A stretch of 55,304 nt of DNA from Actinomycetota bacterium (lineage in GTDB: Bacteria > Armatimonadota > SYMT01). Of the stretch, positions 1,394 to 21,599 are shown one piece after another. The notes under the pieces were generated by a model, which made no database searches, was not told the origin of the DNA, and was given only the letters and a program-made list of their open reading frames with translations. Made by a program: the position numbers and the translations under genes. The DNA is taken from positions 1 through 55,304 of the forward strand of contig SYMT01000553.1 of assembly GCA_005805375.1 (NCBI GenBank), written 5' to 3'. How positions within the stretch are numbered: position 1 is the first letter of the stretch; each line of letters opens with the position of its first letter.

Positions 1394-2206
1394 TCAGGCT
1401 TCTCCCATCACGCCTCGCAGGAAGTCGCGCACCGGCGGAAAGGTCTCCTCGGTGACGTACTCGATCACCAAGGCATCTACGCCCTGGCGGCGGAGCAGCG
1501 CGACGTAATGGGGGTAGTCCAGCTCGCCCTGCCCGGCGGCCGGGTAAACGGGTTTGTCGCCGGAGAGGATCACGTCTTTCGCGTGCCCCTGGAAGATGGC
1601 GGGGCCCACTCGTTCGAACATCTCATCGAGCGTTTCCAGGCCCAGGATGTTCGCCGGGTCAATCATCACCTTCAGGTGGTCCGTGCCGAATTCGTCGAGG
1701 AGAAGCCGGGTGGTGGCGCAGTCCTTCAAGACCTGCGCGCGGCTCGGCTCCAGGCCGATGGCGACGCCGTGCGCCGCCGCGATCGGGAGCAGTTCCGCCA
1801 GCGCGCCCCGGAGGCGATCCCAGGCCGCCTGCGCTGCGGCCGGATCGTCGGGGCGGCGGCCCGACTCGGTGACGAGCACATCGCCACCCATGTCGCGCAT
1901 CATGCGGAGGCGAGCTGCGAAGTAGTCTATATTCGCGCGCCGCTGCGCTTCATTCTCGTCGGTGAGTTCCATGTAGGCGCCCTGCGAGAGAACCTCCACC
2001 CCGGCGTCGGCGAAGGCATCACGGATCCGGCGGCGCACATCGCCGGTGAGCCCGGTGAGGTCCATCGCCGAGCCGTAGCGACAGTAGGACATCCCCTCGA
2101 ACTCCGGGGTGAGCTGTGTGCAGGAGAAGCCGGCGGCGCGCAGCCTGTGCGCGGCTTCCTCGACGGGGTGGCGCCGGAAGACGCCGGACATGATTCCGAG
2201 TTTCAT
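1394..2206 (-). CDS. Sugar phosphate isomerase/epimerase (xylose-isomerase-like TIM barrel)
   Basis: The internal ATG at 2206 (MKLGIMSGVF) lies within ORF 1394..2392(-). The sequence has typical AP-endonuclease-2/TIM-barrel features (GFSCTQL, IGLEP, HLKVMIDPANI, HAKD). The upstream part of the ORF is Arg/Pro-rich and non-coding-like. A GAGGA SD lies upstream. Confidence 0.85.
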   Translation of the reverse strand: MKLGIMSGVFRRHPVEEAAHRLRAAGFSCTQLTPEFEGMSYCRYGSAMDLTGLTGDVRRRIRDAFADAGVEVLSQGAYMELTDENEAQRRANIDYFAARLRMMRDMGGDVLVTESGRRPDDPAAAQAAWDRLRGALAELLPIAAAHGVAIGLEPSRAQVLKDCATTRLLLDEFGTDHLKVMIDPANILGLETLDEMFERVGPAIFQGHAKDVILSGDKPVYPAAGQGELDYPHYVALLRRQGVDALVIEYVTEETFPPVRDFLRGVMGEA

Positions 2207-2223
2207 GGGGTGGTGGGGGTTCC

Positions 2224-3267
2224 TCAGGGGACCAGGATGACGCCGAGAGCCTGGTCGGGGTGTTCGATGAGCAGGTCGCAGGCGGCCGGGCCGTCGGTGA
2301 GCGGCACCCGGTGCGTGATGAGGCAGTCGGCGCGCAGCCGGCCGAGCGCGATGAACCGGAGGCATTCCTCCACGTTTCGCCGGGTGGTCCACTGCACGAA
2401 GACCGGTGCGTAGTCGGCGCCGTGCTCCCAGGCGTCGTCGTGGTAGCCCGGGCCGGGCCGCGCGCTGGAGCGGACGTCCACATTGCCGAGTCCGGCCGCG
2501 AAGAGGTGTTCAATCCGCGCGCCGCCGACAACGACTACGCGGCCCATCTTGTGCGTGTCGGGCGCCTGCTTCAAAATCTGGTGGAGCGCCTTCAACGCCG
2601 GCGTGCCATCGCCGCCGAAGGCGATCACACCGCCGTCGAAGCCGTAGCCGCAGCTCAGGTCCCGGGCGCGGGCCGCGAAGTCCGCTGCGTCCGGCGAGAT
2701 GGTTCCTTCTGCATGGCCGGTTGCCGCCAGCGCATCGCGCCGAATCGGGAAGCGATCCACTCCAAGCACGTGGGCGCCCGCCAGCGCTGCGAACTGTGAG
2801 GCAAAGTGCCCCACGATGCCGAGGCCCATCACGGCAACATGCTCTCCCAGCGTGAATTCCCCGCGCCGGATGGCGTGGAGGCCGGTGGCGGCGAGGTGGT
2901 TGGTGGCTGCCGCCTCGAAGGTGACGGCGTCGGGAATCGGCACCGCCAGATTGCGGGGCACGACTGCGTGGGTCGCATGCAGCGCGAAACCGCCTCCCAT
3001 ACACGCCACGCGCGTTCCGACCTCAAGGTCCTCGCACCCTGGGCCCAGGGCGGAAATCACACCCGCATTGCTGTAGCCGAAGGTGCGGGGCGCCGCCGCG
3101 GGATTCGGTTCCCGCCGCCGCCCCGGCACGCTGCCCAGTTCGGTCCCCGGGCTGATGCAGCACGCCCGCACCGTAACGAGCACCTGTCCCCGCGCCGGTT
3201 CGGGAACCGGTTGATCTTCCACTGTGATGCGGCCGGCACCGTCCAGCATCAGTACCTGTCGTACCAT
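2224..3267 (-). CDS. Zinc-type medium-chain alcohol/polyol dehydrogenase (MDR family)
   Basis: The 347-aa product has a GroES-like N-terminus (GQVLVTVRACCISPGTE) and a Rossmann segment VAVMGLGIVGHFASQFAALAGA. The ATG at 3267 has an AAGGA SD. Confidence 0.85.
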   Translation of the reverse strand: MVRQVLMLDGAGRITVEDQPVPEPARGQVLVTVRACCISPGTELGSVPGRRREPNPAAAPRTFGYSNAGVISALGPGCEDLEVGTRVACMGGGFALHATHAVVPRNLAVPIPDAVTFEAAATNHLAATGLHAIRRGEFTLGEHVAVMGLGIVGHFASQFAALAGAHVLGVDRFPIRRDALAATGHAEGTISPDAADFAARARDLSCGYGFDGGVIAFGGDGTPALKALHQILKQAPDTHKMGRVVVVGGARIEHLFAAGLGNVDVRSSARPGPGYHDDAWEHGADYAPVFVQWTTRRNVEECLRFIALGRLRADCLITHRVPLTDGPAACDLLIEHPDQALGVILVP

Positions 3268-4970
3268 TTCATCCTTTCTGACTCCGGAAATCGGAGGAGG
3301 CTTCGCGCAATCAACACGGGGGAGGACGCCCGCCGTCGCGTGGCGTCGGTTCCCGCCGCGTCCTTTCCGTCCTTCAAAGCCGGCGCCGGATTGGCAAGCC
3401 GCAGCGTCGGCAACGTGGTGTCGCGGCCCGCGCTGACCGTCGCCTCGATCTCGCCTTCCACACGGGGAGCGGGAGAGGCAACCGGATCGAACCGGAATAG
3501 GCGAAGCACACGGTAGACGCCCGGGCGCACGTGTTCCAGGCGCGCGCGCCCCTGCGAATCGGTCACCACATCCATCCAGCGGCGTCCTCCCCAGCCGTCC
3601 GCCGTCCGTGGAGCAAGACTGATGCCGACTTCTCCCTCCACCGCCTTCCCCGCTGCGTCCTGCACGGCGAAGACCACCGCCCCGCCCTTCTCATCGTAGA
3701 GCGCCCGGCGGTCGGAGCGGCTGCCGGCAGTTTCCATCTCGGGGAGCGCAAGCCCGGAAAACTGGAACGGCACTGTGCGCCCCGGTTCAGACCGCGCCAT
3801 CAGGTCGTAGACCAGCCGCGCCGGGTCCTCCGAGAGCCCTTCGAAGCGCAGCGACTGCTCGGCCACCCGAAGGCCTTCCACCACGCGAACGCGGGTCGGT
3901 ATGGGCGAATAGTCCCGAATTACATTGCCTTGCCGATCCACCAGGTATGGAACGGGCGCGCGGCTCACACCGCGCCCGACCAGGTTCATCGCGGGCTGCC
4001 ACGCGAGACGGGCATCCACATACACTACATTGCCCTGACGGCGCCAGCGAGACAGGCGCGCTTCCACTCCGCCCTGACTTTGCGCAGGGAGTGACCGGGC
4101 CTCACCTCCAGGAGCCTCCAACGGGAACTCCAGGTGGACCGGACTCACGCGGGAATAGAGAAGCAGGCTCCCCTGCACCGAGCGCAGGCGCACCGCCCGC
4201 TGATCCCGCAGACGCAAAAAGACCGTCTGTGCGAACTCGAGCAACCGGCCGCGCGTGGCCGAACTGGACCGGACGCCCTCCAAATCCTGCGCTTCCAACG
4301 TCCGCCCAAAGTTGTCCACCGCGCGGAACTCCGGTCCCAGACCGACCACGGCCTCCGCCGCGGTCTCGTCCGGCGCGTAGCACCGGAGCGTCGCGCGAAT
4401 CTGGCCGTCCTCACTCGCCGGTGCGATGGACGCCATCCGCACGCGATACTCGCCCGCCCGCGTCTCCGGATCCGACCGGTTGGACCGTTCGACCACCTGG
4501 AACCCCGTCGCATCTATGCTGTAGAACTCGCACCCGTAGGCCGTCCCCAACTCGTCGAGGACGCGTCCCAGCGGGGTATCCTTCCAGTCGAAATCCCGGC
4601 GGAGTCCCTCCGTTTCCCGCCCGACCACGAGGCGAAACTGGTAGCCCAACAGCGGGGCCAGCCGTTCTGTCACGTCGTTGAGGGTGCTCTGCCGAAAACG
4701 CGCAGTGATGGACTGAGCTTGGGAGGGGATTGAAGCCAGTGACAGCCAGACAGCGAGCACAACGGCGAGCAGCGGACGGCGAGCGGCGCAGGTTTCGTGG
4801 ATGACAGGACTGCTGGGTTCCGCCGGCTCGAGCTCGGCAACAGGTGCGCGGCGAGCGACAAACGGCGAATGGCGAGAGTAACGGGTTCCGCGGATTGCAG
4901 GATTGGAGAGTTCCGTCGCCTGGAATCCGACCACTCTCGAAATCCGGCACCCCGGTCTCCTAGTGCCCAC
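3249..4970 (-). CDS. Secreted or membrane-anchored hypothetical protein with a C-terminal carboxypeptidase-regulatory-like (Ig-like) domain
   Basis: A hydrophobic segment RRPLLAVVLAVWLSLASIPSQAQS is present. The C-terminus reads GEVGISLAPRTADGWGGRRWMDVVTDSQGRARLEHVRPGVYRV (CarboxypepD_reg-like). The start is placed at GTG 4970, which is preceded by GGAGG with a 6-nt spacing. The longest ORF runs to 5120, so the start is uncertain. Confidence 0.55.
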   Translation of the reverse strand: MGTRRPGCRISRVVGFQATELSNPAIRGTRYSRHSPFVARRAPVAELEPAEPSSPVIHETCAARRPLLAVVLAVWLSLASIPSQAQSITARFRQSTLNDVTERLAPLLGYQFRLVVGRETEGLRRDFDWKDTPLGRVLDELGTAYGCEFYSIDATGFQVVERSNRSDPETRAGEYRVRMASIAPASEDGQIRATLRCYAPDETAAEAVVGLGPEFRAVDNFGRTLEAQDLEGVRSSSATRGRLLEFAQTVFLRLRDQRAVRLRSVQGSLLLYSRVSPVHLEFPLEAPGGEARSLPAQSQGGVEARLSRWRRQGNVVYVDARLAWQPAMNLVGRGVSRAPVPYLVDRQGNVIRDYSPIPTRVRVVEGLRVAEQSLRFEGLSEDPARLVYDLMARSEPGRTVPFQFSGLALPEMETAGSRSDRRALYDEKGGAVVFAVQDAAGKAVEGEVGISLAPRTADGWGGRRWMDVVTDSQGRARLEHVRPGVYRVLRLFRFDPVASPAPRVEGEIEATVSAGRDTTLPTLRLANPAPALKDGKDAAGTDATRRRASSPVLIARSLLRFPESERMKWYDRY

Positions 4971-5172
4971 TTCGCACCTCCTATTTCCTACCTGCCGCTT
5001 GCCGGGACGCCACGAAGGACCACTTACTGCGCCCAGCGGGCACTCCCGTTTGGGCGGGCCAGGCATGCTGGTCGCTGTTCGCATCGAAAAATCGCGTGCT
5101 CCCGGGCGTAGCTCGGGCAAGGCGTGCTGTTCGCCGGTCGCCTTTCGTCAGTCGCCGTTCGGCATTCGCTGT

Positions 5173-6243
5173 TCATCGTTCGCCCAGCGCTCGCTCGTAA
5201 CAATTCAGTGTACCGTCAATCATTGCCTGCACGCTGAACCTGGTGGAAATCCAGTCATGGGCGGCGGCGCCGAAACGCTCCCGGAGCGCGGCATCGCCGG
5301 CGAGGGTTTGGAGACGATCCGCCAGTGCCGCCGCATCCCGGATCGGAACCAGGAAGCCGGTCTCACCCTCCCGCACAATCTCCGGGGCGCCCGAAAGGCG
5401 GGTGCCGACGCACGGGCGGCGCAGCAGTCCCCCCTCCAGCAGGGCGCGCGGCAGTCCTTCGCCCCCGATTGACGGCAGCGCCACGATGTCCATCGCCGCA
5501 TAGAACGGGAGTACGTCCGCGTGAAACCCGCAGAACTGCACGCGACTGCTCAGGCCGAGGCTCTCCGCCTGAAGTTCCAGGGGTTCGCGCTGGCCCCCCT
5601 CGCCCAGGAACAGGGCCACGGCGTCGGGGCACTGCGCCGCCAACTGCCGAAACGCCTCGAGGAAGACGGCATGCCCCTTCTTCTCGGTGAGATGGGCAAC
5701 GACTCCCACGACCAGTGCATCGAGCGGAAGCCCGAGGCGCACGCGGGCCTCCTCTCGTGTGCAGGGCAGGTAGTACCGGGCCGGATCCACGCCGTTGTAG
5801 ACCACGTCCACCCGTTCGCCGGAGAGGCCCTGCCGCACCAGGTGATCCCGCACGGCGTGGGACACCGCGATAACCCGCGTGGCGAAGCGGTAGCAGAGAG
5901 CGCTGTTCAGCGCGCGCACGTGAGCGATGCTGGGAATGTGGAGGAGACGCCCCGCCAGGGTGGCATGTACCGCTGCGCTGCTCAACTGGCTGTGGAGCAC
6001 TTCGGCTCCGAAGTCTCGGGCAAACCCAGCGAGGCGAAACGGCGCCAGGAGATTCCCTTTGCCGGAGATCCGCAGCGAGTGGACGTCCAGCCCTGCGGCG
6101 CGCATGGCTTCGATCAATGGGCTGCCGGCCTTGCAACCGATACGCACCCGATGACCGGCGCGCTGCAAATGCTCGCAGAGGCCCATCGTGGAACGCTCCG
6201 CGCCGGAGATGCGCGATGGGGTGATGACCTGGCAGATATTCAT
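5173..6243 (-). CDS. GT4-family (GT-B) glycosyltransferase
   Basis: The internal ATG at 6243 (MNICQVITPSRISGAERS) is used. The C-terminal GT1/GT4 motif reads PSIGGEGLPRALLEGGLLRRPCVGTRLSGAPEIVREGETGFLV. The start overlaps the MFS stop (ATGA, 6240-6243). Confidence 0.85.
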   Translation of the reverse strand: MNICQVITPSRISGAERSTMGLCEHLQRAGHRVRIGCKAGSPLIEAMRAAGLDVHSLRISGKGNLLAPFRLAGFARDFGAEVLHSQLSSAAVHATLAGRLLHIPSIAHVRALNSALCYRFATRVIAVSHAVRDHLVRQGLSGERVDVVYNGVDPARYYLPCTREEARVRLGLPLDALVVGVVAHLTEKKGHAVFLEAFRQLAAQCPDAVALFLGEGGQREPLELQAESLGLSSRVQFCGFHADVLPFYAAMDIVALPSIGGEGLPRALLEGGLLRRPCVGTRLSGAPEIVREGETGFLVPIRDAAALADRLQTLAGDAALRERFGAAAHDWISTRFSVQAMIDGTLNCYERALGER

Positions 6244-7529
6244 GCGGGACGCGGCGTTCGCGGGACCGACCGGACGACGTACAGCGCGCACGGCACCGCC
6301 ACCGCGCACCCGGCCGCGCAAATGAGGAACGCGAGCGTACCGGGGTGTGCCAGCATTGCCATCCGTGAACCCATGAACGTCCCGCTCAGGAAGCCCGCGC
6401 TCCAGAAAGCGTGCGTGATTCCGAGGAGGCGACCTTTTGTTTCCTCGGTGGAGAGTGCCTGGATGAGCGTCGTCATCGTGATGGAGAGTGACCAGGCTGC
6501 GCCCGCTCCCAACAACCCGAAGCCCACGAGCGCCCACGGGGTGCGGGCAAACAGGCCCTGCCCCAGCGCCGCAAGCGTGACCACCGACATGGCGATGACC
6601 ACCGGGCGGTGCGGTCCGATCTTGTCCACGAGCCGCCCCGCGCCGAGTTGGCACACGGCCGCGAGCAGATTGCTCACTGCGGTGTACGTGCCCGCGAGCT
6701 TCTCATCGCCCGTGAGCCGGAACAACAGCAGGTTCAGCAGGAAGGTGACGCAGCCCCAATAAAACGTCGGTAGAAACCGCAGCGCAAGCAGCGCCTGCAC
6801 CTCCCGGCGCCGCCAGAGCTCTCCATAGCCGCCGGTGAATGCCTCCACCCCGCGCGCTGTCGCCGGCCTCGGCAGCGCCGGGAGCCAGAGGGCCGCGGCC
6901 CCGATCAGCGCGACCTCGCCGAGCACGATCCCCTGCCCGATCAGCGCGTAGGCTCCTCCCGTCTCGGCCGCGATCCACGCCGCGGCCCAACTCCCGGCAG
7001 CGTTGCCCACCGTCCCGGTGAGGAAGTAGCACGCGGTAGCGATGGCGAGCGAGCGACGGGGCACCGAATCCATCAGGTAGGACTGCCCGGCGACGGCTCC
7101 GAGCCCGAACATCAGGCCGCCGAAGACCGCCAACGCCGTCATCACCGCCTGGCTGGCAGTCAGGAAGAGGAGTCCACCGGCAAGCACTCCCGTCATCGCG
7201 ATCAAGTAGGCGGGTTTCCGTCCGAGGAAGTCACACAGCGCTCCACCGGGCAGCGCCCCCAGTCCGCCGAACACGACAAACAGGACGCGCACGTTGCCCG
7301 ATACGAGGGGAGTCTGATGGAGCACCTTCTCGACGTAGATCGGGTAGAGCGCGATGATCGGCGCCACCAGGATGCCGCTGACGATCTGGAAGGCGAAGAA
7401 CAGCAGCAGGCGAGAGGAGGTCAGGTCGCGGTACCAGGCCCGCCCTTCTCCGGTCGGTGCAGTCGCCGGCACCTCTTTCGGATCAGTGCGTGAGCGTCGC
7501 GATCCGCCGCTGCCGTCAGGACGCCTCAA
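6240..7529 (-). CDS. MFS transporter
   Basis: The product is about 12 hydrophobic helices and has the DFLGRKP loop motif. The longest start, TTG 7529, overlaps the upstream stop (7526-7528). GTG 7472 is an alternative start. Confidence 0.85.
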   Translation of the reverse strand: MRRPDGSGGSRRSRTDPKEVPATAPTGEGRAWYRDLTSSRLLLFFAFQIVSGILVAPIIALYPIYVEKVLHQTPLVSGNVRVLFVVFGGLGALPGGALCDFLGRKPAYLIAMTGVLAGGLLFLTASQAVMTALAVFGGLMFGLGAVAGQSYLMDSVPRRSLAIATACYFLTGTVGNAAGSWAAAWIAAETGGAYALIGQGIVLGEVALIGAAALWLPALPRPATARGVEAFTGGYGELWRRREVQALLALRFLPTFYWGCVTFLLNLLLFRLTGDEKLAGTYTAVSNLLAAVCQLGAGRLVDKIGPHRPVVIAMSVVTLAALGQGLFARTPWALVGFGLLGAGAAWSLSITMTTLIQALSTEETKGRLLGITHAFWSAGFLSGTFMGSRMAMLAHPGTLAFLICAAGCAVAVPCALYVVRSVPRTPRPA

Positions 7530-8212
7530 GGGGATGCCTCCGGGGCGTAGTCTGCGATTCCGCGCGGCCCGCTTTCCGTGCTGCCCGCGCGGAGCGGTGC
7601 GCTCGCGCCTCCGCGGGACACGCGGTGCGACGTGGATGAGGCACCGGGGTGCTCACCGGCGACGTAGGACGGAGCGCCTTCCTGCGGGCGCAGGTCGCGA
7701 GGCGCCGCCGCCGGACCACTTCCATCATCCGGCGGACGGCTCGCGGGCGCACGCGGGTCAGATGGCGGCTCCGGGTCGCGGCTTCCGGGGTTCGGGCGGA
7801 TCTGGCGGGCCACGCGGGACAATGGATGTCCCTTGGCTGCCAGTTCCAGGGTGTTGAACCAGCCGAAGGGCGTGCGCTGCGCCTGCAGGTTCCGCTCGCG
7901 GAGGCGCGCCACGGTGAGATCGAGGAGCGGCACCGCGTCCTCGGGCCGCGCCAGTTCTGCGAAGAGATGGGCGAAGCTGTGCAGCAACACACCCCGCGCC
8001 CCGACCCGTGCGGCCAGGTCAGCCAGTTCCGCCGCAGCCCGTTCCGCCACCTCTTCGGGTGCGACCTCGTCCCCCTTTTCGACGCTGACGAGAACCAGCA
8101 GTCCTTCCCCAAACTCGGTCACTCGTTCTTGAAACGGCTCCCGCAGCGGCGAGCGTCCCTTCTGGGTGATCTCGCTCCGGAACCGGTCCACGTGCAGCAC
8201 CAGGAAACGCAT
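7526..8212 (-). CDS. Freestanding archaeal-type threonyl-tRNA synthetase editing-domain protein (tRNA-Thr_ED / DTD-like fold) with a roughly 95-aa disordered Pro/Arg/Ser-rich tail
   Basis: From the ATG at 8212 the sequence is MRFLVLHVDRFRSEI...LLVLVSVEKGDEVAPEEV...HSFAHLFAELARPEDAVPLL...TPFGWFNTLELAAKGHPLSRVARQIRP. From memory, this aligns motif for motif with the N-terminal editing domain of Pyrococcus ThrRS (MR.LLIH.D, SVEK.DE..PEEV, FAHLS.ELA.P, PFG, KGHPL). Confidence 0.75.
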   Translation of the reverse strand: MRFLVLHVDRFRSEITQKGRSPLREPFQERVTEFGEGLLVLVSVEKGDEVAPEEVAERAAAELADLAARVGARGVLLHSFAHLFAELARPEDAVPLLDLTVARLRERNLQAQRTPFGWFNTLELAAKGHPLSRVARQIRPNPGSRDPEPPSDPRAPASRPPDDGSGPAAAPRDLRPQEGAPSYVAGEHPGASSTSHRVSRGGASAPLRAGSTESGPRGIADYAPEASP

Positions 8213-8314
8213 CCTGTTCAGGTCCTTCCGCCCGGGCGCGTCCGGGTCAGGCAACTTCTCCTAAAGGATGTAACGTTGTACGGACCGATGAGCAGTCCCC
8301 GGGCGTCAGGGACA

Positions 8315-8553
8315 GGTTTCCAGGGTTCCACAGTTCCGGGGCTCGCCGCCTGGAGACCTGAAACCCTCAAACCCTGGAAACCCGGACACTGCACTTGCGG
8401 TACAATTCCCCGCGCCACCAGCGACAGGTTTCCGGTCTTGCGCGGCCCAGGAAGCGGGCAACCTCGAACGGTCGAACCCTGGACCCCGAGAAACCTGGAA
8501 ACCTGGGAAACCCAGAACCCTACGAAACCCAGAACCCCGCGAAACCGGAAACC
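8315..8553. repeat. GGAAACC / GGTTTCC short-repeat array in the divergent intergenic region
   Basis: A 13-bp perfect inverted repeat pairs ggtttccagggtt (8315-8327) with aaccctggaaacc (8370-8382). A second aggtttcc at 8427-8434 faces ggaaacct copies. At least 6 direct GAAACC copies lie between 8490 and 8553, immediately upstream of the ATG at 8579. Confidence 0.7.
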
Positions 8554-8578
8554 CGGCTGCGATCGAACCCTCCCTGCT

Positions 8579-10627
8579 ATGCCTGGACGAAACCTGCTCT
8601 TCTGCTCTGTCCTGCTTACTTCTCTCGCCGTGCTGCACGCCGGCGACAGGCCCGCCCATTCCGCCGCGCCGGAATTCCGTCAGCGCCGGGCCGATCGCTT
8701 CACTACCCGTCACGGGCTGCCCGCCGGCCGTGTGCTCGCCATCCGCTCCGAGGGCACGCGCATCCACGTACGCACGGAAGCCGGGGGCGCGGCGTTCGCG
8801 GACGGGCGCTGGTCTTCACAGCCGCAGGGAGTCTGGCCGATGCCGGCGGTGCAAACCGAGCGCCTGCCCAGCGGCGCCCGGGTGCTGGATGCCGCCCGGG
8901 GTGCAGACCGGCGCACCTGGGTCGTCACCAGCGCCGGGGTGTTCCGCTCGGAGGGGGATCGCTACGTGCCGTTCGCGTTCCCGCGCAGATATCTGACGAA
9001 CCAGCCGATTGCGAACACGGACGCCGAGTTCACGTGCGTGGAAGTGGATCGCCTGGGGACCGTCTGGCTTGGAGGAAGCACCGGGCTCTATGCCACCGAC
9101 GGCGCAGCCTACTGGCACCCGTTCGACCGCACCGCCGGCCTGCCGTACGAGTATGTCACCTGCCTGGCGCTCGGAGCCGGAGGCGAAATCTGGGCCGGCA
9201 CCACGGAGGGCGTGTGCCGGAACGTCCGCGGGGAATGGCAATACTATTGGGGGCCACGCTGGCTGCCGCACAACCGGGTGAATGCGATCACCGTGGCGCC
9301 GGATGGAAGCGCGTGGGTGGCGACCGACGGGGGGGTCGCCCACCTTTACGATCAAACGATGACTCTTGCCCGCAAGGCGGCCCACTACCAGGAAGTCACC
9401 GACACGCGGCACCGGCGGCGCGGGTTCGTCTGCGGGATCAACCTGAAGTCCCCGGGCGATCCGACTGCCGGCCACCGCTACGAGGCGAGCGACAATGACG
9501 GGCTCTGGACCGCGGTCTACGTCGCGGCACAGTCCTTCCGGTACGCTGCAACGCACGATCCGGCGGCGCGCTTGGCGGCGAAGGAGTCGATGCAAGCACT
9601 CCTCGACCTCGTCCGGTACACCGGCATCCGCGGTTTTCCGGCCCGGGCCATCATCCGGAAGGCCGAGGATGTCGGGGGCTATGACCCCGATGAGACGGTA
9701 CGGGTGCCGGGCGAGCCGGACAAGATCTGGTTCCAGTCACCGGTGGACCCGGACATTCTCTGCAAGGGGGACACCTCTTCCGACGAACTCGACGGTCACT
9801 ATTTCGCCTGGGTGGTGTACCACGATCTGGTTGCCGACGCCGAGGAGAAGAAGTTGATCCGGGCTGCGGTCGAGGCAGTCACGGACAACCTGCTCAACCA
9901 CGACTTTACGCTGGTGGGGCATACCGGCCGGAAGACCCGTTGGGGCGTCTACTCGCCCAAGTACGTCAATGACGACCCTCTGTGGTGGGAGGAGCGGGGG
10001 CTGAACTCGCTTTCGATGCTCTCCTACCTGCGGATTGCGCAGCACATCGTGGGGCATCCGCGCTACGAAGAGGCGTTCCGCGAACTGGCAGGGAAACACC
10101 ACTACCTCCTCAACCTCGTGATGCAGAAGATTGCGGAGCCCTGGGACGGCGTCAACCACTCCGACGATCAGATGGCCTTCATGATGTACTACGCCTTCTT
10201 CCATGTAGAGAAGGACCCGGAAGTGCGGCGCTTTTTGTTCGAGAGCCTGGAACGAAGCTGGAAGGTCGAGCGCCCCGAGCACAGCCCCTTCTTCAACTTC
10301 GTGTTCGGCGCCGCGACGCAGCGTTCGTGCGACGCCGAAGCCGCCATCGCGGAACTGGAGGCCTGGCCCTGGGAGGTCATCGAGTGGCAGGTGCGCGCCG
10401 TGCACCGCCACGATGTGCAGTTACTGACGAAACACCGCGAAGGCCAGGGCCGCGTGCAACTGGATCGAGCGCTGCCTGCCTCTGAGCGCCGTATCATGCG
10501 CTGGAACGGCAACCCCTACCAGGCGGACGGCGGTTCCCCCGACGGCAACAGCGAGGACTGCGGGTCTGCCTGGCTGCTGCCGTACTGGATGGGCCGCTAC
10601 CACGGCCTCGTGGCGGCGGACCGGTAG
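8579..10627 (+). CDS. Secreted protein: N-terminal two-component-regulator-propeller-like beta-propeller repeats plus a C-terminal alpha-helical (possibly six-hairpin) domain
   Basis: The ATG at 8579 gives the signal peptide MPGRNLLFCSVLLTSLAVLHA. Propeller-like repeats include VWLGGSTGLYATDG, IWAGTTEGVCR and AWVATDGGVAHLY. The listed ORF start at 7649 is an artefactual upstream extension that runs through the neighbouring gene. Confidence 0.7.
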   Translation: MPGRNLLFCSVLLTSLAVLHAGDRPAHSAAPEFRQRRADRFTTRHGLPAGRVLAIRSEGTRIHVRTEAGGAAFADGRWSSQPQGVWPMPAVQTERLPSGARVLDAARGADRRTWVVTSAGVFRSEGDRYVPFAFPRRYLTNQPIANTDAEFTCVEVDRLGTVWLGGSTGLYATDGAAYWHPFDRTAGLPYEYVTCLALGAGGEIWAGTTEGVCRNVRGEWQYYWGPRWLPHNRVNAITVAPDGSAWVATDGGVAHLYDQTMTLARKAAHYQEVTDTRHRRRGFVCGINLKSPGDPTAGHRYEASDNDGLWTAVYVAAQSFRYAATHDPAARLAAKESMQALLDLVRYTGIRGFPARAIIRKAEDVGGYDPDETVRVPGEPDKIWFQSPVDPDILCKGDTSSDELDGHYFAWVVYHDLVADAEEKKLIRAAVEAVTDNLLNHDFTLVGHTGRKTRWGVYSPKYVNDDPLWWEERGLNSLSMLSYLRIAQHIVGHPRYEEAFRELAGKHHYLLNLVMQKIAEPWDGVNHSDDQMAFMMYYAFFHVEKDPEVRRFLFESLERSWKVERPEHSPFFNFVFGAATQRSCDAEAAIAELEAWPWEVIEWQVRAVHRHDVQLLTKHREGQGRVQLDRALPASERRIMRWNGNPYQADGGSPDGNSEDCGSAWLLPYWMGRYHGLVAADR

Positions 10628-10677: not shown

Positions 10678-13600
10678 CTACCGGATGCCCAACCCCATCT
10701 CCGCCGACACGGACCGTACTTCCGGCGCGTACATCGCGTACCCCTGGGCGGGGAGGACATGGAAGTGGCCCGGAGTTTCGGTCCAGAGCCGATAGGTCAC
10801 GCGGCACCGCCCTTGCGGAAGCTGCGTCAGGAAGAACGCCACCTTCTGGTCCCGCAGTTCCACGTTGGAGCAGATCCCGATGCCGGCCGTGTAGCCGCTG
10901 CGCACTTCGACCGGCTCACAACCGGAAGGCTTGATGTCCTCGACCAGCACATAATCGTAGTCGTTGCCACTCTCCAGTTCGAGTTCGACTTCGAGCATCT
11001 CCCCACTGGCGATTTCGGCCCCGGAGGCGAGCGGCTCCCGCCGATAGCGCGGCCCGGCGTATCCGTAGTCTGCCGCCAGGTCGTCCGGCTCGTCCAGCCG
11101 CGCGTAGTCGCCCGTGATGAGGGGATTCGGTTCCGAGCCGTCCGCCGCGCGCGGGCGCTGTGCGTCCTGGATCGGCTCCGGCGCCAGGCGGTAGTAGCGG
11201 CGCTGCACGGCGATACGGTTTCCGCCTCCGACGATGGGTTCCTCGGCCGAGAACCACCGGCTTTCGACGGAGTAGTAGAGCGTCCCTTCGCCCTGCCGTG
11301 TAATTGTGAGCGAAGCTGCGCCCGCGCCTACTGTCTCGTCCGGGATGATGAACACTTCGTCAAAGAAGAGCGCATTGTCAGGCGTCACGCGATAGCTCTT
11401 CCGGGCTCGACCGGCGTAATCAAGGGTCACAGTGTAGTTCGGCGCCAGTTCTTTCTGCTGCCGGACAAAACGGCACAGGGCACGTACCACCACCGCCGTC
11501 TCGCGCGTCGAGTCCCAGCGGGTTCCCTGGCGGTGCTGGGTCAGCCAGCGCACCAGGGCGGGCACGTGCTCGCTTTCCGGCTGCATCGCCAGATAGGCTT
11601 CCAGCACGAGTGCGTTCGTCTCTGCTCGGCTGCCCATCCAACCCCAACTGGAGTCGTCTTTCCCCCACGAAATGGTGCCTTGTTGCGCGTCCTCGACGGC
11701 GCTGCTATTGAGGTTGGCGAGCACCAATCGGGCCTTTTTGGCTTCGCCGACCCGGTGGAGCGCCAGTGCCAGCAGTGCCTTCCCCGCGTCTGTGAGCCGC
11801 GCGCGCTGGTCGAACCACTTCCCCGCCAGCGCTGGCCGTACCGGTGCGCGGGCATCCGGGTCCCGTGCGAGCAGCGCGCCCAGCGTGACTGCTGTGAGCG
11901 GAGCCTTCGTCGTCGAGAACTGGTCCCGCAGGAAGCGCAGGCCGCCGGCCAGCATCGGTTGCGGCACAACGCCGCCGGTCTCCCGAAGATCGAGGAGGCT
12001 GTCTACGACGTACGCAGACATCAGTGCATCGCCGGGATCGTTCGGCCACCAACCCCAGCCCCCGTCCCGACTCTGCAGGCGCCGCAGCCGGCGCATTCCG
12101 GTCCCGACCACATCACGGAGGCGACGGGAATCGAACACCGGGTTCTGGGGCCGCGCGTGACCCAGCCAGCGTGCGGTTTCGGTCGAGGAGGTGGAATAGG
12201 GGCTGTGCGCCCCCGGGAGGCGGATCGTCTGGGTCTCCCGGGCACGGACTTCGCGGGCCCGACGCTCCAGATCTTCCAACCGGTAGCCCAGCGCGGCCAG
12301 CGTCTGCCGCACCATCGCGGCGGGGACGAAGCGAGAGGTGGTCTGCTCCACACAGCCGTAGGGATATTCAATCAGGTAGGGAAGGGCATCCAACATCACT
12401 CCGGCCAGCGTGGGCTGCACGCGCACGAATACCCCCGCAGCGCCCGGCTTGCGGGTGGCCGGAACGGTCACCCGCACCTCACGCCGGGTCTCCGTACGCA
12501 GCATGCCGCCCTGGAACTCGGACCGTTCGGCGCCATGCACCAGCACGGGAATCGTCGTCTCCACCGCGTCAGTGTGTCCATCGCCGGCAACGGACATGCG
12601 CACGGTCGCGTCGCCCTCACGCACCACACGGGCATCCCATTCTACCCGCTGTTCCCCATCCGGCGGCACGGTGACTGTCCGCATCCGTGCGGAAGGAGGC
12701 ACATCCACCGTTCCTCCCTCCAGCGCCAGCCGCACCTGCGCGCGGAGTGGCCGCGCCGTGTAGTTGTGGACGACCGCCGAGAGCCGCACGGTGTCCCGTT
12801 CCACAAAGAAGCGCGGCGTCTGCGGCCGGATGAGCACATCCTTCCGGGTCTGCATCACCGCCTCGCCGGAGGCCACCACATCGGAGGAGATGCCCACCGA
12901 GTCCGCGCGCCACTCGGTCAGATTATCCGGCCAGGTGAGTTCGGCCACCGCGGTCCCGTCGGCCCCGGTGCGCAGCGAAGGCACCCAGAGCGCCGTGTCG
13001 GCGAACTCGCGCCGCGGCGTCGCGCCGGTCTCGGCTTTCGACTTTCGTTCCGCGATGAACCCCCCCGCTCCCCTCATGGTTGGGTCGGATGCCGTCTCCC
13101 GTGCCAGTTCGTGGTTTTCGCGGAACGGGTTCTCTCGCGACGCCTGGCGTGCCAGAACATACCCATCCACGTCACCCCGTCCCCGATGCGGTAGCTCAGT
13201 GTCCGCCGCAATCGGTGCGCGCGCACGTCGGAAGGGGGAGGGGATGTGGGGATCCGCCAGCATTCCCATGCCGGAAGGCAGCAGTTCCAGCCACGGCGGG
13301 GTGGGAGACGCCGGCGGACCCAGGCTCCAGCCCTCCAGCCCCTGGTCGGCCTCTCCCCACTCGATCCCATCCCAGCGTCGTTCCCCATAGAGGAAGACGG
13401 TGATCGAGTCTGCCGATCGCGCCTCAATTGCCTCCAGGGCGCCATCCCACACGGCGACACTCAGCTCGGTGCGCACCGGCTCCCCCTTCAGGTTCGTGAC
13501 CTGGAAGCGGAGCCGGGCACGTTCGCCGGGCGCGTAGCGCGCGCGATCCGGGGTGACGACGATCCGGCCGAGCTGCGCGCGCGGCGGAGACAGGAGCTCC

Positions 13601-16600
13601 AGGGTGTCGGCGTACACCTGTCCACCGCGCACCAGCGTGGCCCGCAGAAAGACGTTCGGCAGGTCCTCCCCGGTGATGGGGATTTCCAACTCCCGCGAGC
13701 GCCCGGATAGGGTCAACACCCGCGTCTCGAGGAGGCGCTGGCCCACCGTACGGCAGAGCAAGACAGTGCAGCCAGGCGCCGGAGTGACCAGGAGCACCCG
13801 CGGCGTGTGCCCTTCTTCAGCGTAGCGGTCACGCCGGATCAGCTCCACGCCCTGGAACGCGAATCGGCCCCGGTCCAGCTCCGGTCCAGATACCCAGAGC
13901 GGCAGGGATCCTGCCACCGCTCTGCCGGAAGAGTCGTGCGTGACAAACTCGACCCGAAAGTAGCCCGCCTTGACCGCCGTCCAACGGAAGAAGGCTCTTC
14001 CTTCGGCATCGGTCCGCAACGGTTCGGAGCGCAGCAGGCGGGCCGGCTCGCCGGGCACCTCCGGCTGGCGGAGGACCCGCACGGTTCCCAACACGGAGAC
14101 AGGCGCCGTCCCGCGCCCGTGTGCCGGCATCCCGTGTCCGGGAGGGGATAGGGAAGAAGGAAGAGGGGAGAGCGGCGTGGTTGGGAGCGACGGCGTCCCG
14201 CCGGCCCCGCCCCCGATACGGATAGCGGCGATCTCCACCTCGATCCGATCCCCCTGCTGCACATAGCCCCTGTTCTGGCGCAGGAGCACCGCCACATCGT
14301 GGGCTGTAGCGGGCACCCGACCGGCGCCGACGACGGTCCGCCGGCTCGAGTCCTGCGTTTCCGCTCGGATCACGTACTCTTGATCTTCGCCCTCCGGGCC
14401 CGGTGAGGTACGAAAGCGAATCTCCGCTTCCCCTCGCTCATTGGTGTGCGTTTCTCCCTGAAGCACCGGTCGGTGGGGCCACTCCGTGTCGTGGGCCGGC
14501 CCCGGTGGGGGGCGCAACGTCGGTTCGTAAAGCCAATCGAAGGCTTCCGCAAACCGGAACGGTGGGGCCCACGACTGGCGGAACACCTGGTAGCGCACCC
14601 GCGCCCCCGGGACCGGTCCACCGAAGTAGTACTCCGCGCGAATCGTAACCCGCGCCTCGTCCCCCAGTGGTACCCGACCGGCGGCATGGACGGTGACGCG
14701 AAACTCCGGCTTGCGATACTCCTCCACCCGGAATTCGCTGGCGCCCCCGCCGCCCACGAGCTTGGACCAGCGGCGCGGTCCTGCTTCGTTCCAGCGGTGC
14801 ATTTCGAGCGCGTAGACCCCCAGCCTTGCATCCGCTTCCAGCCGGAACGAGCCGCTCACACTCCCGAATTCATTGGTCACCCCCGAGGCGTCGAGCACCA
14901 CCTCCTGACGCTCATCGTGAGCGACTACGCGGACGGCCTTGCCCACCGCCGGATGCCACGCACTACCGCTCCGCTCCATCAGGATCTGGCGATAGTGGAC
15001 TGTCTGCCCCGGCCGGTAGACGGCTCGATCGGTGATCGCATAGGCGGTCGCCGTGGCTCCCGTACCCCGATGGCCATACCACTCCCAATCCCCTGTCAGC
15101 GGGTTGTCCTCCACATCAAGGGCATAGTGCCTTCCGTCCTGTGCCAGCAGGTCGAGATGTGCATCGTCGGTCCCGGTTCCGGGGGGCGCAGCGGCGCCCG
15201 CCACCAGGCCGTCTGCCCCGGCCCGCAGGAGATGGGAGAACACCCTGCGGACGCCATGCCGGTACAGGCGTCTCCGCACCAGCACGTGCGCCCCGGGGGC
15301 CGGCTTCCCCGACCCGGCGCGCGTCAGGAAGAGCAGCAGCCCCCGCGTATGTCTCGCCCGGACCATACTGAGATCGGAGACCAGAATCACTGCCGCGGAC
15401 CGGCGAAGACCCCCAGTCGCCTCCACCAGGTAGGCGCCCGGGCCCAGGTGTGGGAGCGCCAGATCACTGTGGCGACGGTTGGGATCAGCGGGGCCGGCGG
15501 GGCTCCAGTTCCAGTTGCGAAACACCGGTCCGACTCCGGGCACGGCGGTGGACCCGGGGCGGAGTCGACGCACCAGCGCGGTGAGTGCGAGATTCGGCTC
15601 GTTGCTCCATCGGGGTTGCCGGAAGAGGACCTCAAGCGCCAGCCGCCGCACCCGGAACCGAACCTCCCGGAGATTCCGGTGCGTCACCCCGACCGTCACC
15701 GGCTGACTCGGCAGAAACCGCGGCGGCGCGGACAACACGAGCTCCGGCTGTTCGATATCGGCCATCCACAGGAGAGCGCGCTTCCGCCATCGGCCGGGCA
15801 GGCCGGCGCCGAGTAGGCGCCGACACGCAGCGAGGGCCTCATCCGCGCGCCCCGACTGGAACAGCCACTCCACCAGGAGAATCCCGGCCCGACCCCGCTC
15901 GGGATCGCGGGGAAACGCATCCTGAATGCGTCGCAAGATTGCCTCGGGCTTCTCGTCCCGATAGGGGTAGGGGAGTGATTCAGTCGTCACGGACCCGTCA
16001 GGGGCACGAACCTGGCGAACTGCCCGCCCCGCCATGCGATCCTGATAGTCACGCAGCCAGATCGCCTCACCCAACCATGAGAGAAGCGCGGGACGCAACC
16101 CGGGGGCGAGTGCGCGAATGCGAGCGAAGAGAAAGCGCACCTTCTTTGGGAACGGCCACTCGGGGAGGTACACGGGGCTCCCAGTAAGGCGCCAGGTCGG
16201 AGCGGACGCGGCGGGCCATTGCTCCCACGCTTCCGACGCAGCCAGGTTGGTCTCCCGCCGTTCCAGCATGCGGGCGAGATCGAAATGAAGCTGGATCTCC
16301 TCCTCGCGGGTGCGGTGGTCGGCCCGGAATTGGGGGTACAGACGTAGGGCCGCTTCCATGGCCCACACCGGGTTTCGGTATCCCGCCTCGTACAGGCGCA
16401 CCAGGACCGGTTGTGCCGGGTCCCCTCCCGCCACGCGGGGCACGTTTCGCGTCCGGTGCAGGCGCTCGCCCACGCGCCAGCCGCCGATCGGGGACGCATG
16501 GTAGCACCGGCCCAACCAGTAGAGCGTACGGGGTTCCCACACCGTCCCCTTCGTCTTGTGCGCCAACTCGAGCCCCGCCCCCAGGGCCTCATCCCAACGC

Positions 16601-16953
16601 TGCAACTTCTCCAGACACTGTGCGCGCCGCAGCCGAACCCGGTCTGCGCGACCGGGTCGTCGTTCGTCTTCCCGATTCGCGTTTTGTATCGGGTCCCGCG
16701 TCGGCCGATCCGCCGCCAAGAGGCCCTCGTACGCCGCCAGCGCTTCCTTGTAATTCTGCTGCGTGAACAACCGATCCGCACGCAGTTCCGCCGGTCCAGG
16801 CGGCGGCACGGGCGGCACGCGCGCCTGCGTCCGGGCCGGGCGCCCCGCCAGCACCAGCAGCACCGCCAGTGGCACGAGCACGCCACTCCACCCGAGGACA
16901 CTACGACTGCGAAACACCTGCGCCTCCAGACACGGGGCGACCTTCCTGGTCAC
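10678..16953 (-). CDS. Giant bacterial alpha-2-macroglobulin family protein (2091 aa) with an intact thioester motif and an N-terminal TPR-like extension
   Basis: The thioester motif YPYGCVEQTT has its CVEQ codons at 12343-12354. A post-bait motif REFADTALW follows a roughly 90-aa charged, low-complexity candidate bait. There are multiple MG-like beta domains. The N-terminal roughly 430 aa are helical and TPR-like (QQNYKEALAAYEGLL...). The signal peptide ends ...RPARTQA with no lipobox Cys. Confidence 0.9.
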   Translation of the reverse strand: MTRKVAPCLEAQVFRSRSVLGWSGVLVPLAVLLVLAGRPARTQARVPPVPPPGPAELRADRLFTQQNYKEALAAYEGLLAADRPTRDPIQNANREDERRPGRADRVRLRRAQCLEKLQRWDEALGAGLELAHKTKGTVWEPRTLYWLGRCYHASPIGGWRVGERLHRTRNVPRVAGGDPAQPVLVRLYEAGYRNPVWAMEAALRLYPQFRADHRTREEEIQLHFDLARMLERRETNLAASEAWEQWPAASAPTWRLTGSPVYLPEWPFPKKVRFLFARIRALAPGLRPALLSWLGEAIWLRDYQDRMAGRAVRQVRAPDGSVTTESLPYPYRDEKPEAILRRIQDAFPRDPERGRAGILLVEWLFQSGRADEALAACRRLLGAGLPGRWRKRALLWMADIEQPELVLSAPPRFLPSQPVTVGVTHRNLREVRFRVRRLALEVLFRQPRWSNEPNLALTALVRRLRPGSTAVPGVGPVFRNWNWSPAGPADPNRRHSDLALPHLGPGAYLVEATGGLRRSAAVILVSDLSMVRARHTRGLLLFLTRAGSGKPAPGAHVLVRRRLYRHGVRRVFSHLLRAGADGLVAGAAAPPGTGTDDAHLDLLAQDGRHYALDVEDNPLTGDWEWYGHRGTGATATAYAITDRAVYRPGQTVHYRQILMERSGSAWHPAVGKAVRVVAHDERQEVVLDASGVTNEFGSVSGSFRLEADARLGVYALEMHRWNEAGPRRWSKLVGGGGASEFRVEEYRKPEFRVTVHAAGRVPLGDEARVTIRAEYYFGGPVPGARVRYQVFRQSWAPPFRFAEAFDWLYEPTLRPPPGPAHDTEWPHRPVLQGETHTNERGEAEIRFRTSPGPEGEDQEYVIRAETQDSSRRTVVGAGRVPATAHDVAVLLRQNRGYVQQGDRIEVEIAAIRIGGGAGGTPSLPTTPLSPLPSSLSPPGHGMPAHGRGTAPVSVLGTVRVLRQPEVPGEPARLLRSEPLRTDAEGRAFFRWTAVKAGYFRVEFVTHDSSGRAVAGSLPLWVSGPELDRGRFAFQGVELIRRDRYAEEGHTPRVLLVTPAPGCTVLLCRTVGQRLLETRVLTLSGRSRELEIPITGEDLPNVFLRATLVRGGQVYADTLELLSPPRAQLGRIVVTPDRARYAPGERARLRFQVTNLKGEPVRTELSVAVWDGALEAIEARSADSITVFLYGERRWDGIEWGEADQGLEGWSLGPPASPTPPWLELLPSGMGMLADPHIPSPFRRARAPIAADTELPHRGRGDVDGYVLARQASRENPFRENHELARETASDPTMRGAGGFIAERKSKAETGATPRREFADTALWVPSLRTGADGTAVAELTWPDNLTEWRADSVGISSDVVASGEAVMQTRKDVLIRPQTPRFFVERDTVRLSAVVHNYTARPLRAQVRLALEGGTVDVPPSARMRTVTVPPDGEQRVEWDARVVREGDATVRMSVAGDGHTDAVETTIPVLVHGAERSEFQGGMLRTETRREVRVTVPATRKPGAAGVFVRVQPTLAGVMLDALPYLIEYPYGCVEQTTSRFVPAAMVRQTLAALGYRLEDLERRAREVRARETQTIRLPGAHSPYSTSSTETARWLGHARPQNPVFDSRRLRDVVGTGMRRLRRLQSRDGGWGWWPNDPGDALMSAYVVDSLLDLRETGGVVPQPMLAGGLRFLRDQFSTTKAPLTAVTLGALLARDPDARAPVRPALAGKWFDQRARLTDAGKALLALALHRVGEAKKARLVLANLNSSAVEDAQQGTISWGKDDSSWGWMGSRAETNALVLEAYLAMQPESEHVPALVRWLTQHRQGTRWDSTRETAVVVRALCRFVRQQKELAPNYTVTLDYAGRARKSYRVTPDNALFFDEVFIIPDETVGAGAASLTITRQGEGTLYYSVESRWFSAEEPIVGGGNRIAVQRRYYRLAPEPIQDAQRPRAADGSEPNPLITGDYARLDEPDDLAADYGYAGPRYRREPLASGAEIASGEMLEVELELESGNDYDYVLVEDIKPSGCEPVEVRSGYTAGIGICSNVELRDQKVAFFLTQLPQGRCRVTYRLWTETPGHFHVLPAQGYAMYAPEVRSVSAEMGLGIR

Positions 16954-20921: not shown

Positions 20922-21599
20922 CCGCTTCTTCCTCCTACGGTGATCCCGGCATCCGTCCGCACCCGCACCAGCGTCCGCCCCGGCAGACACTGCTCGCCCC
21001 ATCCTTCGGCGCGCGCCGGGCGGGTTCCTTCGAGACGACGGACCACGCGAGTCCCTCCGATCACGCCTGCGGGTTGGGGGAGACCGGACCGGCGCGGTCC
21101 CGCAGGTGGCGATGCTGAACACGCTGTCCCTTTGAGAGCACAACCGGCTCGTCGGAGGGATCGAAGCTGCATCTTTGGCAGAGACGATACTTACCTCTTC
21201 GAGAACGTCCGTAACTGCGGCATTGGGATGTTCAGTCACGATCGTGGTGGAGGAACATACCAACCACACCTTCGCCGTGCCCTTCGACTTGCGCGCCGAC
21301 CCCTCCGTCGCCTGGGATGGGCCGGGGAACAAGCCCAATTGGGTGACCGCGGAGTTCAGCTTCCGGTACCGGTGACACTCGCTCGTCCCCGGCACGCTCA
21401 TCTGTGGTGACCGGCCCTGCCCGGTACCCGACACCACACTTAACAACCGGAAGCGCACGGGCCGCGGTCTCTGGCAGGCCTTCGCAGCCATGGGCCCCCA
21501 TCAGGTGGGCCATCTGGGGCCCATCAATGTATTCCCGCTCCCGCCGGCATCGAGGGCAAAGCGATCGAGCAGGACGGGCTTGTCAGCCCGGCGCCGCAT

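Follow-up and report, generated by a model that had tools for sequence, protein, structure and literature searches.

What does a free-standing copy of the editing domain of archaeal threonyl-tRNA synthetase (ThrRS) do in a bacterium, where its gene runs directly into those of a transporter and a glycosyltransferase? The question was raised by a stretch of 55,304 nucleotides with a G+C content of about 67% (contig SYMT01000553.1, positions 1 to 55,304, of assembly GCA_005805375.1, deposited as an Actinomycetota bacterium and placed by GTDB in the Armatimonadota), hereafter the window. An open reading frame (ORF) at 7526..8212 on the minus strand of the window, with an ATG start at 8212, encodes the 228-residue editing-domain protein considered here (ED). 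A preliminary description of the locus had left open whether ED was a trans-editing factor or a deacylase fold turned to a substrate other than tRNA. The sequence was found to belong to a standalone, mostly bacterial subfamily in which three pocket residues of the archaeal domain, Tyr, Lys and Glu (Y-K-E), are replaced by Phe, Asn and Arg (F-N-R). The reading favoured here, held with about even confidence, is that ED would be a trans-acting aminoacyl- or acyl-tRNA deacylase of the D-aminoacyl-tRNA deacylase (DTD)-like fold with an altered specificity.

Domain Assignment and Fold

7799..8212, minus strand: DTD-like-fold editing-type domain of the standalone F-N-R subfamily, residues 1–138 (PF08915, PDB profile matches, AlphaFold2 model)

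A longer TTG start at 8254 was considered and rejected, and the ATG at 8212 was taken as the real start, because every homologue begins with MR(F/L/V)L. Residues 1–138 of ED span the PF08915 (tRNA-Thr_ED) profile from position 1 to position 137 of 137 in the Pfam search (E = 1.2e-31), with a score of 110 bits against a gathering cut-off of 30.2, which places the protein in this family. The preliminary description had recognised the archaeal ThrRS editing domain from its motifs and would have given up the idea had a profile search come back empty; the search gave this significant, full-length match, and the motifs MRFLVLHVD, SVEKGDEVAPEEV, FAHLFAELARP, PFGW and KGHPL are all present and align without gaps to the N-terminal domains (NTDs) of the Pyrococcus abyssi and M. 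jannaschii enzymes. Among PDB profiles, the matches were to 4rrf (4e-39), 1y2q (1.8e-37) and 4rr6 (1.5e-24). Scores against the whole-protein NCBIfam models were far lower than their cut-offs, with 69 bits against 362 for the Ser-tRNA(Thr) hydrolase NF011500 and 103.2 bits against 484 for the threonine--tRNA ligase NF003068, both profiles aligning to ED over their first ~140 positions only. ED is attached neither to a ThrRS nor to an anticodon-binding domain, and consists of the 138-residue domain and a 90-residue tail.

The AlphaFold2 model of ED, built from 16 homologues, had a mean pLDDT of 88.5. Foldseek superposed it on the P. abyssi NTD with a TM-score of 0.95, a root-mean-square deviation of 1.0–1.1 Å and 36% identity, on the M. 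jannaschii NTD with a TM-score of 0.91–0.96 and on E. coli DTD with a TM-score of about 0.66. The predicted model thus places ED within the DTD-like fold, and the superposition on the Pyrococcus domain that the preliminary description had called for agrees with the fold it had proposed. By sequence, ED is not a DTD, as PF08915 was its sole Pfam match at E ≤ 0.01. DTD (PDB 1JKE) and its animal paralogue ATD are, like ED, single-domain, free-standing members of the fold, of about 145 residues; they act in trans on mischarged tRNA, and a cross-subunit element sets their specificity (PMC5802732). Their motifs are SQFTL and NXGP(V)T, the latter in Gly-cisPro and Gly-transPro forms (PMC5802732), whereas the segments of ED at these positions read SFAHL and AKGHPLSR, within the more general (S/P)FAHL and KGHPLSR.

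The Pocket and the F-N-R Subfamily

In the P. abyssi NTD, the side chains within 6 Å of the scissile bond are those of Pro80, Phe81, Ala82, His83, Tyr120, Lys121 and, from the other subunit, Glu134 (PMC4491819). Tyr120 and Glu134 were described as ‘completely conserved’, with Glu134 holding the α-amino group (PMC4491819, Ahmad et al. 2015). Lys121 positions the catalytic water, K121M being an editing-defective mutant, and catalysis was attributed to the 2'-OH of the tRNA, not to protein side chains (PMC4491819). The residue numbering of that study was confirmed on the P. abyssi sequence. The corresponding residues of ED are S79, F80, A81, H82, F119, N120 and R133, and the ungapped alignment of the C-terminal part of the domain puts F119, N120 and R133 at the positions of Tyr120, Lys121 and Glu134. 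The Tyr-Lys-Glu set of the archaeal domain is therefore absent from ED, while the equivalent of His83 and the PFAHL and PFG(W/Y) elements are present, as S79-F80-A81-H82-L83 and P115-F116-G117-W118.

The generality of this exchange was seen in 270 homologues, pooled from a word-indexed search and a HMMER scan and aligned to one profile. F-N-R was found in 133 of them, all of 228 residues or fewer and none fused to another domain. Y-K-E was found in 96, including 30 of the 32 proteins of at least 350 residues, which are ThrRS-attached domains; a few distant short homologues retain the Phe and the Arg with a variable Asn. The F..R proteins shared a mean identity of 59% among themselves and the Y-K-E proteins one of 43%, compared with 34% from one group to the other. 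Both groups share the invariant residues H7, E45, D48, A81-H82-L83, P115-F116-G117, K127-G128-H129-P130-L131 and R136, so that H82, L83, F116 and G117 of the pocket elements are common to all. Conserved specifically in the standalone group are T16, G19, R20, S21, L41, H78, F80, F84, F119, N120, L122, A126, R133, V134 and A135, the first four of which belong to an extra invariant T..GRS...E loop. L41, H78 and L122 correspond to P. abyssi positions 42, 79 and 123, which to judge by PDB entry titles were mutated together in a study of protein-core redesign, and these changes probably reflect core repacking and not a change in the active site. Neither net charge nor Cys content separated the two subfamilies.

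Compared with the archaeal ThrRS editing domain, the F-N-R proteins thus have the full-length PF08915 match, the fold and the common invariants, but are never fused to ThrRS, are mostly bacterial, carry the additional loop and the repacked positions, and have Phe, Asn and Arg for Tyr120, Lys121 and Glu134. On the evidence of the alignment, they form a distinct and coherent standalone subfamily with a rebuilt pocket, the adenosine and ester side of the site being kept and the amino-acid side replaced. For the repurposing of the fold that the preliminary description had offered as one reading, this has two consequences. A changed acyl moiety is indicated, because three conserved pocket side chains have given way to invariant Phe, Asn and Arg. 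A non-tRNA substrate is not indicated by the same change, because the adenosine-side motifs are conserved.

The same residues bear on two alternatives to a tRNA deacylase of altered specificity. According to the first, ED is an ordinary Ser-tRNA(Thr) trans-editing factor that backs up or replaces the N2 site of the bacterial ThrRS, its position beside a transporter gene being incidental. This would agree with the full-length PF08915 match, the near-identical fold, the retained His83 equivalent and main-chain-forming motifs, and the scattered gene context of the family described below. Discrimination and catalysis by the NTD are, moreover, independent of the side chains of Tyr120 or Glu134 (PMC4491819), and the bacterial N2 site relies on an oxidisable Cys (PMC4041444), which would provide a rationale for a backup factor. 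Nevertheless, all three pocket side chains have been exchanged, in 133 proteins, for a set that is equally invariant, which argues for selection for something different, and the change at Lys121 falls on the residue whose mutation made the P. abyssi domain editing-defective. The known free-standing editing protein of Crenarchaeota (ThrRS-ED/ThrRS-2; NF011500, PDB 4RR6), which contains the same domain and acts in trans as ED would, retains Y-K-E (Tyr115, Glu129 and the K116M mutant in A. pernix; PMC4491819) and bears an anticodon-binding domain (PMC11295145), whereas ED is a single-domain F-N-R protein. The low NF011500 score and the lack of a ThrRS gene among the immediate neighbours of ED point the same way, and this explanation was judged unlikely.

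The second alternative is that ED is a non-catalytic pseudo-enzyme that binds the CCA end of tRNA, or a ligand resembling an aminoacyl-adenylate, for protection or sensing. It draws on the loss of the water-positioning Lys121, given the effect of K121M in P. abyssi, and on the speculation that such modules may first have protected aminoacyl esters (PMC4491819). On the other hand, the catalysis of this fold comes from the tRNA, as noted above, an Asn would still be able to hold a water molecule, His82 and the motif around it are invariant, and the invariance of the new residues argues for a defined chemistry. A pseudo-enzyme is therefore very unlikely.

Distribution

The word-indexed search returned 1271 homologues of ED. 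The best 120 of these were almost all single-domain proteins of ~140 residues from bacterial metagenome-assembled genomes (MAGs) of the Armatimonadetes, Chloroflexota, Bacillota/Firmicutes, Actinomycetota, Thermodesulfobacteriota, Bacteroidetes and Acetothermia, and where NCBI gave a label it was ‘threonyl-tRNA synthetase editing domain-containing protein’. When representatives clustered at 50% identity were scanned exhaustively with HMMER, 590 clusters matched at an E-value of 1e-3 or lower and 242 at 1e-10 or lower. Additionally, a motif scan in which each GTDB species was represented by one genome showed ED relatives to be encoded in at least 191 species genomes, both bacterial and archaeal. 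Because FN and R were part of the scan patterns, the relatives found in this way are F-N-R proteins by construction, and the unbiased division between the two groups is that of the 270-protein alignment. By record title, the best 80 of the 191 comprised about 24 Chloroflexota, 10 Binatia, 8 Bacillota and 10 archaea, the rest coming from Deltaproteobacteria, Thermodesulfobacteriota, Actinomycetota, Acidobacteria and others. The hosts included the complete or nearly complete genomes OZ246887.1, OZ252051.1, CP070773.1, CP147778.1 and NZ_BFAV01.

The archaeal F-N-R proteins were encoded in MAGs of Bathyarchaeia/Thermoproteota, Aenigmatarchaeota, Heimdallarchaeota and Freyarchaeota (loci L015, L030, L032, L037, L047, L051, L058, L065, L073 and L083). 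The ThrRS of archaea normally bears the Y-K-E domain itself, and F-N-R copies in archaea would imply paralogy with that attached domain.

Genomic Context

The genes that follow ED in the window, their junctions and the region upstream of ED are as follows.

7526..7529, minus strand: TTGA overlap of the ED stop and the start of the transporter gene (sequence)

6240..7529, minus strand: major facilitator superfamily (MFS) transporter, 429 residues from the longest start (MFS_1, E = 1.1e-40)

6240..6243, minus strand: ATGA overlap of the MFS stop and the glycosyltransferase start (ORF coordinates; 5173-6243 translates from Met, MNICQ...)

5173..6243, minus strand: glycosyltransferase of the GT4 family, 356 residues (Glycos_transf_1, 1.4e-31; Glyco_transf_4, 6.3e-22)

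3249..5120, minus strand: ORF of up to 623 residues between the GT4 and alcohol dehydrogenase genes, with no Pfam match (ORF list, Pfam scan)

2224..3267, minus strand: Zn-dependent alcohol dehydrogenase (ADH)-family protein (ADH_N and ADH_zinc_N; 74% identity to L004 10809-11840)

1394..2392, minus strand: xylose-isomerase-like TIM-barrel protein (AP_endonuc_2, E = 4.1e-26; 79% identity to L004 11916-12728)

8255..8599, no strand assigned: divergent intergenic region upstream of ED (clustered GRAACCY repeats with 8-nt and 17-nt periods)

The two overlaps and the identities of the MFS and GT4 products are as the preliminary description had given them. The conserved part of the MFS protein starts near residue 30, and no PDB relative was found for it by sequence. 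A more specific assignment of the GT4 enzyme was rejected, as all NCBIfam equivalogs scored far under their cut-offs and the PDB matches were generic GT4 enzymes. The alignment of the TIM-barrel protein to its counterpart in L004 begins at residue 61, and its real start lies probably near 2206. A scan for promoters and terminators, uninformative at 67% GC, gave no sigma-70-like site and no terminator within the ED-MFS-GT4 stretch.

Context was compared first within the clade of the window, defined by ED identities of 69–97%. A 4-nt junction of the form [ATG/GTG/TTG]A joins ED to the MFS gene in seven loci, namely the window, L001, L002, L004, L085, L086 and L089, and the MFS orthologues directly 3' of ED have identities of 52–58% in L001, L086 and L089 and 55–59% in L002 and L004. 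The pair is absent in L003 (70% identity, Armatimonadetes) and in two relatives with 65% identity (L087 and L088). ED and MFS accordingly make up a genuine two-gene module that is conserved in one lineage, where ED would be co-transcribed and translationally coupled with the transporter. The upstream side of ED had an older synteny in the clade, with GFO_IDH_MocA and, beyond it, RuvC genes running divergently from ED, which has been lost in the window. Downstream of MFS, a GT4 gene was found in two loci only, the window and L004 (57% identity between the GT4 proteins), which also have the order ED-MFS-GT4-ADH-TIM barrel in common, the window with the additional ORF of up to 623 residues. The GT4, ADH and TIM-barrel genes are downstream neighbours specific to this lineage, and any functional tie between them and ED would be conjectural. 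ED-MFS-GT4 is not a system and no data support a glycosyltransferase link, so that of the three-gene operon of the preliminary description the MFS coupling stood, for seven loci of its own clade, and the GT4 link did not.

The MFS protein was also considered as an obligate partner of ED and rejected as such, since two metagenome contigs encode a 52%-identical MFS protein and no ED was found in them by tblastn. In L091 a divergent winged-helix regulator lies upstream of the MFS gene; L092 was examined by tblastn alone. Several further features of these loci were recorded. A protein of 87–88 residues with no Pfam match and 71–73% identity is encoded 3' of MFS in four loci of the clade (L001 9818-10084, L002 9822-10085, L086 6754-7020 and L089 6942-7205) and is absent from the window. 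In the 65%-identical relative L088 (5001-6875, 8685-9386), the genes that come after ED on its strand encode a GNAT acetyltransferase and a D-isomer-specific 2-hydroxyacid dehydrogenase, and an Asp/Glu racemase lies 3 kb away, a possible D-amino-acid or hydroxy-acid theme that was seen at this one locus.

Across the family, the ORFs within 5 kb of ED in 84 loci were clustered all against all, and a conserved neighbourhood was rejected, as no neighbour family occurred in more than seven loci. Pfam scanning of the nearest neighbours (80 upstream and 80 downstream) gave 102 and 87 families, respectively, with no ThrRS among them. The commonest was MFS_1, with 5 of 80 on each side, followed by PP-loop/TtcA-like proteins (5), NrdR (4), GFO_IDH_MocA (4), DOPA dioxygenase (4) and ArsR (3). 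An association with ArsR-type regulators was rejected because the cases were too few (7 of 84 loci within 5 kb, 3 of 80 immediately upstream). With an iterated MFS profile, an MFS gene was found within 5 kb in 15 of 84 loci and adjacent on the same strand in 8 of 84. The eight loci come from two lineages, the window clade, with MFS downstream, and Binatia, with MFS 35–47 bp upstream, and a common origin of the two arrangements was rejected, the transporters belonging to unrelated subfamilies (blastp E ≥ 7.5e-4). The survey of homologues thus bore out co-occurrence with MFS in two lineages and gave nothing in favour of a family-wide ED-MFS-GT4 association.

Some neighbours are related to tRNA. 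An aminoacyl-tRNA synthetase gene lies directly upstream of ED in two loci. In an Aenigmatarchaeota MAG (L047 6481-8004) it encodes CysRS and its stop codon overlaps the start of ED; in an Acidobacteria MAG (L044 455-2446) it encodes ArgRS. A TtcA-like PP-loop gene was likewise observed directly upstream of ED in five Bacillota loci (L046, L050, L069, L072 and L076, at about 7060-8004), four of which, L069 being the exception, have a gene for an ADP-forming acyl-CoA synthetase-like protein ~0.5 kb downstream.

The other reading of the preliminary description, a fold repurposed for a non-tRNA substrate, is taken here to mean hydrolysis of an aminoacyl or acyl ester of a small molecule (a sugar, lipid or nucleoside) that the MFS transporter would move and the GT4, ADH and TIM-barrel enzymes would make or modify. 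The persistence of the 4-nt ED-MFS junction over ED identities of 69–97%, the gene order common to the window and L004, the second and unrelated MFS beside ED in Binatia, the sugar- or polyol-oxidoreductase-type genes that adjoin ED in the clade (GFO_IDH_MocA, AP_endonuc_2) and the remodelled pocket could all be accommodated by this reading. It is difficult to reconcile with an adjacent MFS in just 8 of 84 loci, a GT4 gene in two, neighbours that cover about a hundred Pfam families per side, MFS relatives of 52% identity that exist without ED, and intact adenosine-side motifs. In addition, a mean identity of 59% across phyla and both prokaryotic domains is unusually high, as would be expected of a macromolecular substrate common to all cells sooner than of a metabolite confined to one lineage. 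A small-molecule ester as the substrate was consequently considered quite unlikely.

Proposed Activity

The reading of ED as a tRNA deacylase of altered specificity can be put as a sequence of steps. By analogy with its solved relatives, ED probably forms a homodimer, which would bind the 3'-terminal adenosine of an acylated tRNA through (S/P)FAHL, PFG(W/Y) and KGHPL. Ester hydrolysis would probably follow the substrate-assisted route established for the fold, with the 2'-OH of A76 and a water molecule. The aminoacyl pocket is rebuilt, with Phe in place of Tyr120, Asn in place of Lys121 and Arg in place of the cross-subunit Glu134, and the T..GRS...E loop is new; because of this rebuilding, L-Ser-tRNA(Thr) is probably not the preferred substrate, or not the only one. 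With more positive charge and without the carboxylate that binds the ammonium group, such a pocket would favour acyl groups that carry no charge or a negative one at that point.

A tRNA substrate is suggested by four lines of evidence: the adenosine side of the site has kept its motifs; the proteins are very highly conserved between phyla and between the two prokaryotic domains, as would suit a universal macromolecular ligand; gene context is scattered, with occasional tRNA-related neighbours (TtcA-like, CysRS, ArgRS); and DTD and ATD are precedents for free-standing members of the fold. An altered specificity is suggested by the exchange of three invariant pocket residues for three others that are also invariant, one of which reverses the charge where the α-ammonium group is bound.

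Several points weigh against this reading of ED. The side chains of Tyr120 and Glu134 were found to be dispensable for Ser/Thr discrimination in the archaeal domain (PMC4491819), so the substitutions need not change specificity. The editing defect of the K121M mutant means that the Asn could mark an inactive or differently acting site. The strictly conserved coupling to MFS within the window clade and a second, independent case of MFS adjacency, in Binatia, could point to a link with small molecules. Finally, the reading is drawn from the sequences of the subfamily and a predicted model of ED.

The C-Terminal Tail

7526..7798, minus strand: C-terminal extension, residues 139–228 and the stop codon, rich in Pro, Ala, Ser, Gly and Arg (flat codon-position GC, codon-change comparison)

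The preliminary description had presented ED as a standalone protein with a Pro/Arg/Ser-rich tail of roughly 95 residues; standalone it is, and the tail has 90 residues, including 18 Pro, 14 Ala, 13 Ser, 11 Gly and 10 Arg. The GC content by codon position is flat in the tail (0.78/0.75/0.74), against 0.79/0.44/0.80 in the domain. Compared with the 97%-identical homologue L084, the tail has 8 synonymous and 19 non-synonymous codon changes at 11.9% nucleotide divergence, the nucleotide changes being spread 8/13/11 over the three codon positions, whereas the domain has 14 synonymous and 2 non-synonymous changes at 3.9% divergence. The tail is absent in L001, L002, L086 and L089, whose proteins have 140–154 residues, and is replaced by 22 unrelated residues in the 85%-identical relative P0002. 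To judge from these codon changes, the domain is under purifying selection. Since the changes in the tail are mostly non-synonymous, its codon-position GC is flat and relatives have no tail or an unrelated one, it is an unconstrained extension that evolves neutrally, a read-through sequence of a kind common in high-GC genomes, and it is probably disordered. For the same reasons, a role of the tail as a functional module was rejected.

Other Features of the Window

In the divergent region upstream of ED, 11 of the 49 GRAACCY matches of the window lie at 8314-8595, in both orientations; no such array was found upstream of ED in the relatives L001–L004 and L085. In an Rfam scan of the window and 10 related loci, all families scored below their gathering cut-offs, and neither a T-box nor another riboswitch was found upstream of ED. 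A segment resembling a signal peptide (RRPLLAVVLAVWLSLASIPSQAQS) lies inside the ORF at 3249..5120 on the minus strand, an ORF that the syntenic locus L004 lacks.

Farther away, a 2091-residue ORF at 10678-16953 on the minus strand contains a GCVEQ thioester-type motif (…YPYGCVEQTTSRF…) and is a candidate for a bacterial alpha-2-macroglobulin. A 1059-residue product encoded at 28086-31265 on the plus strand has AMP-binding, PP-binding and NAD_binding_4 domains, like a carboxylic-acid reductase or an enzyme of the non-ribosomal peptide synthetase type, and near this gene are those of an asparagine synthase (24644-26578) and a short-chain dehydrogenase/reductase (20160-21491). At 152-1267 on the minus strand, a Uma2-family putative endonuclease ends in a C-terminal run of AEAE(Y/H)(R/Q)R repeats.

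Significance of the F-N-R Subfamily

Databases already label proteins such as ED by their domain, and the F-N-R subfamily itself is apparently unstudied in the literature found, where the search gave no study of a bacterial single-domain PF08915 protein or of the F-N-R signature. A 2024 review gave only crenarchaeal ThrRS-ED, DTD and ATD for the DTD-like fold (PMC11295145). The domain has been named and described as archaea-specific and ThrRS-attached, yet the F-N-R group is mostly bacterial and standalone, and beside the DTD, NTD and ATD of the literature it makes a fourth coherent and strongly conserved group within the fold. A possible, though doubtful, extension of this is that F-N-R proteins are also a fourth functional class, after DTD, the archaeal NTD and animal ATD. 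They would be trans deacylases of many bacterial phyla and several archaeal lineages, in which the Arg-for-Glu pocket selects acyl-tRNAs that lack a free α-ammonium group or are negatively charged (e.g., N-blocked, α-hydroxy or acidic acyl groups), and which in the lineage of the window may have as a partner an MFS transporter to carry the offending metabolite.

Precisely the residues in contact with the amino acid have changed in these proteins and the RNA-binding side has been kept, which poses a testable question of translation quality control, namely which acyl-tRNA, if any, they remove. A cultured host is at hand for this question in Desulfocucumis palustris NAW-5 (L046, with the ED homologue at 8001-8426), the sole cultured isolate among the best 80 genomes of the motif scan.

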